The notes: a model not told the origin generated them from the letters alone. Shown: positions 23,752-27,227, counted from the stretch's first letter. The stretch is DNA of 64,000 nucleotides from an uncultured Clostridia bacterium (GCA_958448705.1 CAUDEY010000002.1:74768-138767); one strand, 5' to 3'. Made by a program: numbers and translations.

Positions 23752-25416
23752 ATGCCGGACACGGATTTGTCACGGGAAAATCATATTCATACCTACCTTG
23801 AGCAGTATATAGAAAAAATCTTTTATTTCTGCTTGAAGAAGACGGGAAAGGAGCAGGAAGCAGAGGATTTGACGTCCGATATTTCTCTTTGCGTTTTTGC
23901 TGAACTTTCCAGAGGCGTTATACCGGAATATTTTTCTGCTTGGGTATGGAGGATTGCAAAAAACAGATATAGCGTATGGGCTGACAAAAAGCGCAGGAAA
24001 TCCACAATGGTTTCGGGCGCGGATATCGATGATTTTGAACTTTCGGATAACAAAATCATTGAGAATGAATATGTACGAAGCGAGGAATTATCGCTTCTCC
24101 GGCGGGAATTGGCGTTCATTTCATCCAATTACCGCGAAATTGTTGTTGCCTATTATGTCTACGATAAATCTATCCGTGACATTGCCCGAGCACTTCAGCT
24201 CACCGAAGGAACGGTCAAGATGAGACTGCTCCGCGCCCGAAACATTTTGAAAGAAGGTATGAGTATGGCAAGAGTATTCGGAAAAATGAGTTATTGTCCT
24301 GAAGATATAGGATTTATCATGAATGGTATCGCAGGAAAATACGGAGAACCGTTAACAATATTTAATCATAAATTGGTAAAAAACATTTTACTTGCTGCTT
24401 ACAGAACCCCTTCCACAGCGAAAGAACTTGCAATAGAACTTGGTGTGGCTCTTCCGTACATGGAAGATGAACTTGAAAAACTCGTATCAGAGACATTGCT
24501 CCGTAAGAATTGCAAAAAATATGAAACAAACATAGTAATAGTCAGTGCTAAAGCACAAGAGGATATTTATTTAAACCTGAAAGAGATCACTTCTGCATTA
24601 ACAAACGCTGTAATAGAACTGCTTGAATATGACATGGCATGCAAAGAAAAAAACGGCTCACAATGGAATGAAGGGTATCAATCATATGAGGATGCAAAAT
24701 GGACACTGCTGATGCAAACAGTAGATAAAGTAAAAGAGGGAATCTTAAATGAATACAAGAAAACAATTGTAAATCTTCCTGTTGTAAAACTGGGAAAATT
24801 CGGACATACTATCCGTCCGAACGGAGGTGAATGGGATCTTCTCGGACTTGAAGAGTATACAGGTGAACATCCTGCTTTTGTAGGATTACACGGGTGTATT
24901 GATGCTTCAAACTATGAAAAAAAAGTAATTGATTTCGGACAATTTAAGTTTCAATACAAAAATATTGCCGATAAAACACCTATGCATATTAGTTATGAGG
25001 AAGCACAAGCTCTGATATATGCAGCAGAAGGAAATACAACCGATGTAAAGAAAGCAGTGTTAGATAATCTTGTAAAGTACGGTTATTTAAAAAAAGAAGG
25101 AGAAACGTATATTCCCACATTTCTCATTATGAGAAAGCGGAAAAACAAAATCCGCACGTCCGAACAGGAGGCTGAATATAATCGTCTGTTAAATCGGGCG
25201 GTAAAAATTGGGTTTTCCCATTATGCATTTTGCAGAGGGATAGTTTGTTCGGAAATCCCCGATTTCTTCAAGGACGATCAATATCAGATCGATCACGCTT
25301 GTGCAAATATTTATGACATACGCGGAGCCGTGCTTGAAGAAGCCCTGCGAAAGGGATATATTTCTTATTCCGAAAACGATGCGCGCAAGATGCTTGGCGC
25401 CTATCTTATTATATAG
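23752..25416 (+). CDS. Sigma-70/ECF-like sigma factor fused to a ~375-aa cytoplasmic C-terminal extension (paralog 1)
   Basis: GGGAGGTGA RBS is present. Region 2-like sequence is EAEDLTSDISLCVF...FSAWVWRIAKNRY. Region 4 HTH is YREIVVAYYVYDKSIRDIARALQLTEGTVKMRLLRARNILKE. Winged-helix-like segments follow (STAKELAIELGVALPYMEDELEKLV). No TM helix is present. Confidence 0.75.
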   Translation: MPDTDLSRENHIHTYLEQYIEKIFYFCLKKTGKEQEAEDLTSDISLCVFAELSRGVIPEYFSAWVWRIAKNRYSVWADKKRRKSTMVSGADIDDFELSDNKIIENEYVRSEELSLLRRELAFISSNYREIVVAYYVYDKSIRDIARALQLTEGTVKMRLLRARNILKEGMSMARVFGKMSYCPEDIGFIMNGIAGKYGEPLTIFNHKLVKNILLAAYRTPSTAKELAIELGVALPYMEDELEKLVSETLLRKNCKKYETNIVIVSAKAQEDIYLNLKEITSALTNAVIELLEYDMACKEKNGSQWNEGYQSYEDAKWTLLMQTVDKVKEGILNEYKKTIVNLPVVKLGKFGHTIRPNGGEWDLLGLEEYTGEHPAFVGLHGCIDASNYEKKVIDFGQFKFQYKNIADKTPMHISYEEAQALIYAAEGNTTDVKKAVLDNLVKYGYLKKEGETYIPTFLIMRKRKNKIRTSEQEAEYNRLLNRAVKIGFSHYAFCRGIVCSEIPDFFKDDQYQIDHACANIYDIRGAVLEEALRKGYISYSENDARKMLGAYLII

Positions 25417-25429
25417 TTACGGCTATTGC

Positions 25430-25460
25430 ATCCTCGGAGCGGCAAAGCCGCGCCGGGGAT
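25430..25460 (+). other. Conserved GC-rich hairpin downstream of sigma paralog 1 (no U-tract)
   Basis: ATCCTCGGAGCGGC-aaa-GCCGCGCCGGGGAT. It shares the CGGAGCGG...CCGG(A/G)GATAGT(A/G)TTAT core with 27235-27269. Confidence 0.55.
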
Positions 25461-25550
25461 AGTATTATATTCCACGGTTGGTATTTAAAACAACTGTACT
25501 CAATCTCCTAACCAAACCATTTTTGCGCCGACTATATAGATGGTACATTC

Positions 25551-27227
25551 ATGAATGGAACAAAGCAGGTATGCATTATGAAAACGGATGAAACAATTAA
25601 AAAGCTTTCCGATCAGGTATTTTTAGATAAACTCTACGGATATGCTTATCATCGTTGCCGCACGTCGCATGAGGCAGAGGATTTATGTTCCGACATCATC
25701 CTTGCTATTTTACGCGCAATTTATAACGGTAAGGAAATTCAAAACTTTTATGCGTTTGTCTGGACGGTAGCGCATCGAGTATATGCTGACTATTGTGAAC
25801 AGCGAAAAATACATTCTGATGCTGTAATTGATGCAGAATATTCCGATCATATCTTAAATACGCCGGAAACTCCGATTGACGCCTATTTTGAAAAAGAAGC
25901 GGAAAAAGAGCTGTTTTCCCGCATTATGAGAGAGATTTCCTTTCTTTCTAAGATTTATCGGGATGTTATGATCCTGTACTATCTGGACGAAATGAAAATA
26001 GCAACAATTGCAACATCGCTTGGCATTTCCGAAACAACGGTAAAGCAACGATTGTTTTCCGCCCGTAATGCCATTAAGAAAGAGGTGCAGAAAATGGAAA
26101 GCAGGAATTTATCATTAAAGCCGATAAATTTACAATTTGTTGGGACAGGCAGTCCCGTAGGAAATGATCCAAGTGAAAAAGCAAAAGAGCGTATGTTGTC
26201 ACAGAATTTGATTTATTTATGCAAAAACGAAGCCAAAACCGCAAAGGAACTATCCGAGGCTCTCTGCGTTCCGATGCCTTATATTGAAAATGAAATTGAG
26301 ATTCAGTGTAAGGGCTTAAACGGCAACTACGGACTATTACGCGATGTTGGTAACGGGAAATATATTTCCAATATTCTGATTGTGGAAGCTAAGGAATATG
26401 AAGAAGCAAACAGCATCTATGAAAAGTATCTGGATGAGTTTTGTACTTGTTTAAAAATATGTGTTGAAAACAGTAAGGATAAAATATTGTCGTTTCCGTT
26501 TTTGAACAAACAACAAGATGTAAAATTCGTCTTATGGTCTTTAATATCCCATACGGTATGGGATATGCAGAGGCATATCAATACGATTCTTGCCGATCAG
26601 TATTTTGGGAATATTGCACCGATAAAACGCGATTTTACAACGGTGGCTATCGCTGTCCGCGAAAATGAAGTGCTTAATATGGGCTTTTACGGCTGTGACG
26701 GTGTAATGGCAAATGATTTATGCGGTTACTCCCGTGTATTTTTTTCAAATATTTATAGTGACCGTATTGACAAGCATTTTGGGTGCGGACATAATCTTTC
26801 CACCGATCCTCAGATTTTATTGACGCTTCATGCAATCGGAGGCCTTGAGGTTAATGCTTTGACCGAAACAGAAAAAGAAATCGCAGCAAAAGCCCTGGAG
26901 TGCGGTTATCTGCGTAAAAACGGCACCACACTGGACCCGAAGATATTGGTGTTCAACGAAGAGGATCTATCTGCTTTTTATCATTTGTTTTCTGATTTTG
27001 ACAGCGATTCCAAACGGATTGCCGAAAAAATTTCCGGAGACATTGCAGCATATATAAAAAAGCATATCCCGAGACATTTGATTGGCGAATATCCTTATTA
27101 TAATTCTTTGATTGCCAGTGTTCGGATCCTGCATGACATTGTGGAAGAATGCATTAAGGAAGGGTTATTGATTCCTCCGGAAAACAGAGTTTGTGCTGAA
27201 GGTACATTCATAACAGTAAAAAAATAA
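25551..27227 (+). CDS. Sigma-70/ECF-like sigma factor fused to a long C-terminal extension (paralog 2)
   Basis: Same architecture as paralog 1: EAEDLCSDIILAIL...FYAFVWTVAHRVY, YRDVMILYYLDEMKIATIATSLGISETTVKQRLFSARNAIKKE, and TAKELSEALCVPMPYIENEIE. An alternative start is at 25578 (MKTDE). Confidence 0.75.
   Translation: MNGTKQVCIMKTDETIKKLSDQVFLDKLYGYAYHRCRTSHEAEDLCSDIILAILRAIYNGKEIQNFYAFVWTVAHRVYADYCEQRKIHSDAVIDAEYSDHILNTPETPIDAYFEKEAEKELFSRIMREISFLSKIYRDVMILYYLDEMKIATIATSLGISETTVKQRLFSARNAIKKEVQKMESRNLSLKPINLQFVGTGSPVGNDPSEKAKERMLSQNLIYLCKNEAKTAKELSEALCVPMPYIENEIEIQCKGLNGNYGLLRDVGNGKYISNILIVEAKEYEEANSIYEKYLDEFCTCLKICVENSKDKILSFPFLNKQQDVKFVLWSLISHTVWDMQRHINTILADQYFGNIAPIKRDFTTVAIAVRENEVLNMGFYGCDGVMANDLCGYSRVFFSNIYSDRIDKHFGCGHNLSTDPQILLTLHAIGGLEVNALTETEKEIAAKALECGYLRKNGTTLDPKILVFNEEDLSAFYHLFSDFDSDSKRIAEKISGDIAAYIKKHIPRHLIGEYPYYNSLIASVRILHDIVEECIKEGLLIPPENRVCAEGTFITVKK

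Follow-up and report, generated by a model that had tools for sequence, protein, structure and literature searches.

Head-to-tail clostridial genes for ECF-type sigma factors with long, structurally unmatched C-terminal extensions and subfamily-specific promoters

Sigma factors of the extracytoplasmic function (ECF) type that carry a fused regulatory extension are the 'one-component systems' among sigma factors, and only a small number of extension types has been investigated. Passages of the ECF classification literature describe regulation by fused C-terminal extensions for the groups ECF41, ECF42, ECF56 and ECF238 (PMC7826278, PMC8999054). According to these texts, ECF41, ECF56, ECF294, ECF295 and ECF205 lack a cognate anti-sigma gene, and their extension supposedly touches the core of the sigma factor and modulates its activity (PMC7826278, PMC3426412, PMC8999054). 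In ECF42, which is represented by Sven_0747 of Streptomyces venezuelae, a long soluble extension with TPR repeats is described as required for activity or as modulating it (PMC8999054). A Cys-rich extension of about 20 amino acids is listed for ECF238, and the motif CGxxGxGxCxC for ECF288 (PMC7826278). ECF262, with the representative SFB89493.1 from Ruminococcus albus, is tabled among the groups 'with regulatory extensions, others' (PMC8999054, Table 2). Here, we describe two ECF-type sigma factor genes, sigA and sigB, which are located head to tail on the plus strand of a 64,000-nucleotide stretch from an uncultured Clostridia bacterium (GCA_958448705.1, CAUDEY010000002.1:74768-138767). This whole stretch is referred to as the window. 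Both proteins contain a conserved soluble tail of about 375 amino acids after the sigma core. The main new result is that each of the two subfamilies has its own conserved ECF-type promoter; the motif of the sigA subfamily is near-exclusive to genes of the family. The reading we favour, with some reserve, is that each gene encodes a one-component sigma factor that is autoregulated and has its regulator built in as the tail; both the autoregulation and the regulatory role of the tail are what we infer from the comparisons given below.

23731/23752-25416, plus strand: sigA, open reading frame (ORF) for a 554-residue ECF-type sigma factor; core, residues 1-171 (23752-24264); extension, residues 172-554
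23739-23746, plus strand: ribosome-binding site GGGAGGTG of sigA; orthologue leaders keep GTGAAAGGAGG-N7-ATG
25551/25578-27227, plus strand: sigB, ORF for a 549-residue ECF-type sigma factor (558 residues from the ATG at 25551); core, residues 1-172; extension, residues 173-549

The original prediction, which was made from the sequence alone, had proposed these two ORFs and had quoted motifs of sigma regions 2 and 4 (EAEDL..., TAKELAIELGVALPYMEDE, TAKELSEALCVPMPYIENE). Both ORFs are present on the plus strand, and the motifs were found in the translations. The start codon of sigA is likely the ATG at 23752, which is preceded by GGGAGGTG. That of sigB is likely the ATG at 25578, as in sigB homologues; the alternative ATG at 25551 lies within a conserved palindrome of the leader, at its centre. 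The predicted sigma domains held in profile searches. For the two proteins, Sigma70_r2 of Pfam scored 25.5 and 36.1 bits (cut-off 24), Sigma70_r4_2 scored 38.3 and 45.4 bits (cut-off 25.7), and the NCBIfam model TIGR02937 (sigma70-ECF) scored 58.9 and 65.2 bits (cut-off 42.9). Sigma region 3 and region 1 gave no Pfam match in sigA or sigB, and the linker between sigma2 and sigma4 is acidic, comprises about 35 residues and has an AlphaFold pLDDT (predicted local distance difference test) below 50. With sigma2 and sigma4, neither sigma3 nor sigma1, and a short linker, both proteins are ECF (group 4) sigma-70 factors. No equivalog-level NCBIfam model scored above its cut-off for either protein; the best partial scores were those of SigM-, SigW- and SigX-type models. 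Bacillus subtilis SigW (5wuq) was the best solved relative of both proteins in a sequence search of the Protein Data Bank (PDB), and a Foldseek comparison of the sigA head with the PDB yielded ECF sigma factors (E 1e-5). A membrane helix was predicted in neither protein. The maximum Kyte-Doolittle mean over 19 residues is 1.0-1.1, which agrees with the absence of transmembrane helices that had been noted for the extensions.

sigA and sigB are 29% identical in residues ~19-271, and BLAST detects nothing beyond. A profile comparison over the whole length yielded an E value of 1e-43. Aligned alone by means of hhalign, the middle region with the first winged helix of the tail gave a probability of 98% (E 1e-13), and the distal region with the second winged helix and the C-terminal helices gave 87% (E 4e-6). 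The stretch of approximately 150 residues that separates the two winged helices could not be aligned. Orthologues elsewhere share 55-78% identity with sigA or sigB, respectively. Because the mutual identity is as low as 29%, sigA and sigB are, by this comparison, old paralogues from two subfamilies and not the result of a recent duplication; the tandem duplication assumed in the original prediction is therefore not supported.

The family is large. The tail of sigA matched 614 clusters and the tail of sigB 560 clusters at 90% identity, nearly all of which are 545-560 residues long and contain sigma domains. At 50% identity, 516 clusters were matched by the sigA tail in an exhaustive search. The match begins at about residue 175 in full-length proteins of 510-563 residues, and among the full-length matches the tail was never fused to another type of head. 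Many residues of the tail are invariant. Where an annotation exists, it is 'sigma-70 family RNA polymerase sigma factor', and the entries stem from metagenome-assembled genomes of Eubacteriales, Oscillospiraceae, Lachnospiraceae and Ruminococcus. As far as sampled, the family seems to be confined to Clostridia. Its distribution is patchy: within the same order, 7 of 201 genomes contain members, and within the same genus, four of eight do. The window's own genome (2.2 Mb) contains five such genes, and the other three (538, 564 and 496 residues) are located on other contigs. Tandem arrays of divergent members were found at 6 of 83 other loci. A literature search yielded no functional study of the family.

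Two further observations concern copies of these genes elsewhere. Three decapitated copies (L219-L221) have lost the sigma head and are preceded by transposase genes or their remnants (DDE_Tnp_1 and Y1_Tnp in L221), and a fourth copy, L218, is truncated at the 5' end; these copies show turnover of the cassettes. A human gut metagenome contig of 36.7 kb (L137) has the same gene order sigA-sigB-XRE as the window. Its sigB is 99% identical, and its sigB promoter, leader and hairpin sequences are identical to those of the window. The organism is therefore a human gut resident.

The promoter elements of the two genes are as follows.

23680-23685, plus strand: TATAAT, a candidate -10 element of the housekeeping type, upstream of the sigA ECF promoter; read in the sequence and of putative function
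23698-23708, plus strand: sigA -35 element TGTTACCGAAT, in agreement with TG(t/c)(a/c)A(C/G)CAAAT, the consensus of the subfamily
23719-23728, plus strand: sigA -10 element CACACTATAT, 17 nucleotides after TGTTAC; matrix positions 0-7 are conserved to at least 94%
25507-25513, plus strand: sigB -35 element CCTAACC; CACCTAACCAA is the consensus of 45 different upstream sequences from the subfamily
25528-25539, plus strand: sigB -10 element CCGACTATATAG; GACT begins 17 nucleotides after AAC

Of 74 sigA orthologues, 68 have the motif of the subfamily, TG(t/c)(a/c)A(C/G)CAAAT-N12-CACTATAT, in their upstream region, at about 20 nucleotides from the start codon. In the window it occupies positions 23698-23728 (TGTTACCGAAT...CACACTATAT). 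Read as TGTAAC-N17-CAC, the motif is built like the ECF promoters of B. subtilis. The corresponding sigB-type motif is present in essentially all sigB orthologues. In short form, the two promoters are TGyaAC-N17-CACTATAT (sigA) and CTAAC-N17-GACTATAT (sigB). These B. subtilis promoters have the same AAC-N17 spacing. Compared to the AAC-N16-17-CGT type of ECF promoters, which are commonly autoregulated, the motif upstream of the family genes is of the type TGyaAC-N17-CAC/GAC-TATAT, and the sigma factor using it is presumably the cognate one. All five paralogues of the genome carry variants of this promoter, and the bases of the -10 and -35 elements are paralogue-specific. Furthermore, 33 of 63 orthologues of the sigA subfamily contain TAWAAT at most 35 nucleotides upstream of the -35 element, 29 of them in the extended form TGnTAWAAT. 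The simplest reading of a housekeeping-type -10 element combined with an ECF promoter would be transcription at a basal level, to which the cognate factor adds positive autoregulation.

The search for a shared promoter motif, which the original prediction had proposed, thus led to promoters that are specific for each subfamily. Promoter matrices were used to scan the window's genome, which is 98% complete. The sigA site scored 26.8 bits and the next best site 19.1 bits; for sigB, the values were 34.8 and 15.2 bits. In 870 kb of orthologue flanks, exactly one sigA motif per family gene was found. In 25 whole genomes containing orthologues, 28 sites had at most one mismatch to the sigA motif. 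Twenty-seven of these are located 17-40 nucleotides upstream of a family gene; the other one, on G224:C11, was not assigned to a locus. Matches with two mismatches elsewhere in the 25 genomes look like chance. No convincing second target was found in the matrix scans of the own genome, the 870 kb of flanks and the 25 genomes, nor in a relaxed screen for AAC-N17-CTATAT upstream of genes.

These results bear on an alternative in which the tail is not a regulator but the output. The sigma core would mainly serve to express its own gene without restraint from a private promoter, and an activity of the tail or the capture of the RNA polymerase core by the fusion would be the effect, so that a single gene would form a bistable switch, e.g. 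for dormancy or phage defence. A second strong promoter site is indeed lacking in the own genome, and none outside family genes was confirmed in the 25 genomes. The patchy occurrence (7 of the 201 genomes from the order), the position next to ssrA in an islet of low GC content, the several divergent paralogues per genome with their tandem arrays, and the existence of copies disrupted by insertion sequences (IS) would also suit such a switch. However, the matrix was built from autoregulated sites only, so that missing weak targets are to be expected. Moreover, PADLOC had no match, the tail lacks a recognisable catalytic fold or motif, and there is no conserved association with defence genes. 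We consider this alternative rather improbable.

Two sites outside the window were noticed in the same genome. On contig C25 (plus strand), TGAAAC-N19-ATACTATATA starts at 22118, 20 nucleotides upstream of a 277-residue ORF (MMTVIDVSHHQGQIDWETVK..., start at about 22170), which we take to resemble a GH25-type muramidase. This site (TGAAAC...CTATATA) is, loosely, a candidate ECF target that is not attributable to any one paralogue. Contig C3 (7923-6652, minus strand) codes for a sixth extended ECF sigma factor, which comprises 423 residues and has a different tail. Its gene has a textbook TGAAC-N17-CGTC promoter and shares the downstream context CTATATAG(A/G)TGAAA with the long paralogues.

The structure of the tail was predicted by means of AlphaFold. 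Full-length sigA was modelled from 35-40 homologues with a pLDDT of 78 and a pTM (predicted template modelling score) of 0.63; residues 168-182 and the acidic linker between sigma2 and sigma4 are disordered in this model. The tail alone yielded a compact soluble fold with a pLDDT of 87 and a pTM of 0.85. It consists of a beta strand, a first winged helix (residues 207-264), two long helices that form a hairpin, a beta-rich part, a second winged helix (residues 415-460) and a helical bundle, in this order. The beta-rich part bears the invariant motifs RPNGGEWD and VGxxG. The positions of the winged helices are as follows.

24370-24543, plus strand: sigA winged helix 1 (residues 207-264); AlphaFold, Foldseek winged-helix probability 0.99-1.0, weak match to EutK_C of Pfam
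24994-25131, plus strand: sigA winged helix 2 (residues 415-460); AlphaFold, hhalign to the sigB subfamily 87%, E 4e-6
26199-26363, plus strand: sigB winged helix 1 (residues ~208-262), placed by profile alignment to sigA; hhalign 98%, E 1e-13
26829-26945, plus strand: sigB winged helix 2 (residues ~418-456), placed by profile alignment; hhalign 87%, conserved motif EKEIAAKAxECGYLRKNG

The winged-helix-like segments of the original prediction were borne out by the predicted H-H-H-beta-beta arrangement and by Foldseek; each protein contains two such domains and not one. When the tails were compared with Pfam (E <= 10), NCBIfam, PADLOC and the sequences of the PDB, nothing except the weak EutK_C winged-helix match was found. 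With the full-length model, Foldseek retrieved only sigma factors from the PDB. With the tail-only model, it retrieved only winged helices of the ArsR/MarR/IclR type, none of them at E <= 0.001. The structural comparison recommended at the outset therefore shows that only the winged-helix parts of the tail match the PDB. By means of hhalign, it was also examined whether the tail consists of a duplicated unit of winged helix and helices; with a probability of 15%, support was weak, and such a duplication is not claimed.

The genes adjacent to family members were compared by all-against-all clustering of the ORFs in the 6-kb flanks of 84 sigA-type loci and the 3-kb flanks of 80 sigB-type loci. 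No neighbour gene is conserved across these loci, and Pfam detected no anti-sigma-type domain in the scanned neighbours within the window, in line with the earlier remark that a separate anti-sigma gene is missing; more precisely, none that is recognisable by Pfam is adjacent. The original prediction had also combined sigA and sigB with the adjacent XRE-TPR gene (27525-28619) into one regulatory module. XRE-type genes occur near approximately 14 of 83 sigA-type loci, which is about the rate expected from their genomic frequency, and in the sigB subfamily mainly in one clade. Because no neighbour is conserved at the roughly 160 loci and the XRE frequency is about that of chance, the link is unsupported and the XRE-TPR gene was rejected as a partner. 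The accessory islet, in contrast to this module, was confirmed: it has a GC content of 34-39% and adjoins ssrA. It extends from 19107 to 28743, starts right after the tmRNA gene (18752-19106), and its flanks have a GC content of 44-52%. The same islet codes for a 121-residue protein (21658-22026, minus strand) with a stand-alone region-4-like helix-turn-helix; its Sigma70_r4_2 score of 24.0 bits is below the cut-off of 25.7.

At the junction of head and tail, both genes contain a conserved element.

24250-24267, plus strand: sigA junction with Shine-Dalgarno-like AAAGAAGGT, ATG (M170) and an invariant ATG (M172, 24265-24267); candidate internal start for a free tail of 383 residues
26079-26096, plus strand: sigB junction, AAAGAGGTG-N6-ATG (M173 of the 549-residue form, 26094-26096); candidate internal start

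In 75 sigA orthologues, the constraint on synonymous sites is strongest at residues 163-174, where it reaches 1.07 bits compared to a mean of 0.28 (permutation p <= 1e-4). For example, the codons GGT, AGA and GCA are used in 63 of 75, 69 of 75 and 71 of 74 sequences, respectively. The DNA of the sigA junction (TTG AAA GAA GGT ATG GAT ATG GCA AGA) is similar to the region around the ribosome-binding site of sigA itself, TGAAAGGAGG-N7-ATG. Among sigB-type sequences, E169 is encoded by GAG in 62 of 62 sequences, although GAA prevails at E171 (41/42) and E175 (33/38); M173 is ATG in 63 of 63. The synonymous constraint itself is an observation on the sigA subfamily, from which we infer internal initiation at the junction. 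The site may yield the tail as a free protein that acts in trans.

The junction could also be interpreted as a scar. If the proteins were ordinary sigma/anti-sigma fusions, the tail would have arisen from a downstream gene for a cytoplasmic anti-sigma factor after loss of a stop codon, and the Shine-Dalgarno-like site and ATG would be a functionless relic of translational coupling. The location of both exactly at the junction is what such a fusion would leave, and the classification text states that in ECF operons an anti-sigma gene usually follows directly after the sigma gene (PMC7826278). A relic, however, would carry neither the strongest synonymous constraint of the gene nor GAG in all 62 sequences. 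Furthermore, Pfam detects no anti-sigma domain even at E <= 10, and no pair of an unfused sigma gene and a tail gene was encountered among the 516 clusters, where the short tail-only entries that were checked are a contig end and a decapitated copy. A fusion of this kind is very unlikely.

The leader of sigB contains a second conserved element.

25546-25557, plus strand: perfect palindrome of 12 base pairs without loop, CATTCATGAATG, near the likely transcription start of sigB

Dyad arms of at least 6 base pairs, nearly all of them loopless, are present in 38 of 60 leaders of the sigB subfamily, compared to 4.4% of shuffled leaders. In sigB-type leaders (loci L137-L216), the palindromes comprise 10-12 base pairs and follow the -10 element at a constant spacing. 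Their variants CAATCATGATTG, TAATGATCATTA and ATTGATCAAT differ between clades, and the dyad symmetry is kept. By its form, the palindrome is operator-like. It is conceivable that the tail binds DNA through its winged helices. As an on-board transcription factor, the tail might extend promoter recognition, or it might repress its own promoter via the leader palindrome and thus add negative feedback to positive autoregulation. Each tail has two canonical winged-helix folds, no separate regulator gene is conserved, and loopless palindromes of this length at a fixed place are typical of operators for dimeric proteins. On the other hand, the mean isoelectric point of both winged helices is 5.4-6.5, i.e. 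neutral to slightly acidic, compared to 9-10 for sigma4; DNA binding is therefore less likely, although this is a weak argument. Most leaders of the sigA subfamily lack such a palindrome, and the palindrome variants change without changes in the recognition helices, e.g. in L147 versus class A. On balance, DNA binding by the tail appears unlikely. A co-variation of palindrome class with winged-helix residues was considered as well; it is confounded by phylogeny and lent no support.

Each gene is followed by a GC-rich hairpin.

25430-25460, plus strand: GC-rich hairpin after sigA, ATCCTCGGAGCGGC-AAA-GCCGCGCCGGGGAT, without U tract; RNAfold -26.6 kcal/mol for the 70 nucleotides that follow the stop codon
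27235-27269, plus strand: hairpin after sigB, CTATCTCCGGAGCGG-TTTCA-CCGTTCCGGAGATAG, without U tract; RNAfold -32.8 kcal/mol for the 70 nucleotides that follow the stop codon

In the window, the arms of the sigB hairpin resemble those of the sigA hairpin. A 3' hairpin of -15 kcal/mol or stronger is present in 56 of 73 orthologues of the sigA subfamily, and 26 of the 73, about a third, have the conserved arms CGAGAG...CTCTCG. These arm sequences (CCGCCGAGAG...CTCTCGGCGG; loci L003-L087) are shared despite a protein identity of approximately 50%. Because the arm sequences are shared at this level of identity, they suggest more than a plain terminator. A search of Rfam yielded nothing in 23300-27600.

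In the reading we favour, each gene would form an autonomous unit, in which one or two promoters are followed by a short leader, the coding sequence and a hairpin. The cognate sigma factor would read its own subfamily-specific promoter, often backed by a housekeeping-type -10 element. In response to a cytoplasmic cue, the fused tail would either keep the sigma core from acting or permit its action, in analogy to the extensions of ECF41 and ECF42. The cue might be read by the variable middle part of the tail, and the start at the junction may add free tail to the system. The tail is taken as the built-in regulator because no gene for an anti-sigma factor or another partner is conserved nearby.

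Several observations weigh against this reading. AlphaFold does not dock the tail on the core with confidence (pTM of 0.63 for the full length compared to 0.85 for the tail alone), and an intramolecular clamp therefore lacks support from the model. The only detectable strong site is the own promoter, so that there is no evident output; weaker targets are indistinguishable from noise. In the sigB subfamily, the synonymous constraint per sequence window peaks at the junction and is not significant (p = 0.2). Two proteins that start at M172 were checked as possible free tails and turned out to be a contig end and a decapitated copy; likewise, a sigB-type form of 343 residues is an IS-disrupted copy and not the product of an internal start. 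Finally, the differences between palindrome variants are not mirrored in the sequences of the recognition helices.

More speculatively, and in our opinion improbably, each gene could be a complete mobile single-gene circuit. It would have itself as the only strong promoter target, the hypervariable tail would be a cytoplasmic receptor, and the internal start would make free tail as an antagonist. The output would be a bistable switch of the transcription machinery, by RNA polymerase capture or an activity of the tail, e.g. in dormancy or phage defence. If true, such a switch would explain the patchy, islet-borne distribution with multiple paralogues. Should each factor truly have no target but itself, the family would constitute a self-contained transcriptional switch of an unusual kind. 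Independently of this, the conserved element exactly at the junction of head and tail may encode a second protein product. The sharply defined private promoters of the subfamilies could serve as orthogonal sigma/promoter pairs for the engineering of anaerobes, and factors of the sigA/sigB type need no partner gene; with the junction element, these properties open the family to direct testing.

With respect to the core, the closest relatives are SigX, SigM, SigW and SigV of B. subtilis, as judged from SigW (5wuq) and the SigM-family model. B. subtilis ECF promoters are of the TGTAAC/TGAAAC-N16-17-CGxC type and are subject to positive autoregulation. The overall promoter architecture of sigA and sigB is the same, whereas their -10 element reads CAC/GAC-TATAT instead of CGxC. 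The B. subtilis factors comprise approximately 165-190 residues and have separate membrane anti-sigma factors; in sigA and sigB the regulator would be fused. Domains of class I anti-sigma factors (zf-HC2, RskA or similar) were not detected after sigma4 by Pfam or NCBIfam; the tail may still have a divergent anti-sigma function.

Among the factors with extensions, ECF41 (SigJ of Mycobacterium tuberculosis, Ecf41 of B. licheniformis) and the related groups ECF56, ECF294, ECF295 and ECF205 likewise combine an ECF core with a soluble C-terminal extension and have no cognate anti-sigma gene. In contrast, the ECF41-type extension is SnoaL-like and about 100 residues long, whereas the tail of sigA and sigB comprises about 375 residues with two winged helices; SnoaL or SnoaL_2 was found after sigma4 neither by Pfam at E <= 10 nor by fold comparison. 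Moreover, ECF41 genes have conserved neighbours and genes of the sigA/sigB family have none. ECF42 shares the long soluble extension and the one-component logic. It differs by its TPR repeats, which neither Pfam nor Foldseek detected in the sigA and sigB tails (the only TPR matches are in the neighbouring XRE protein), and by its occurrence in Actinobacteria and Proteobacteria and not in Clostridia. An assignment to the Cys-rich groups ECF238, ECF287 and ECF288 is contradicted by the extension length of 375 residues and by the absence of CGxxGxGxCxC from the translations. For ECF264, DUF1835 had no match after sigma4 at E <= 10, and the transmembrane extensions of ECF263, ECF52 and ECF53 differ from a tail with a 19-residue hydropathy of at most 1.0-1.1 and a soluble AlphaFold fold. 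The original prediction had not recognised the extension, and it indeed corresponds to none of the SnoaL, TPR, Cys-rich, DUF1835 and transmembrane types named in the passages of the ECF classification text. ECF262 of the 2021 classification by Casas-Pastor is alike in having a representative from Clostridia and a listed regulatory extension. In a full-text literature search, this group was mentioned only in Table 2 of PMC8999054, and the comparison is one with this table entry. ECF262 is the likeliest existing label and may be the same family as that of sigA and sigB. The family represents a known kind of system with a large and structurally unmatched type of extension, which is common in gut and rumen Clostridia and is carried by at least 516 clusters at 50% identity; in a small genome, the number of copies reaches five or more.

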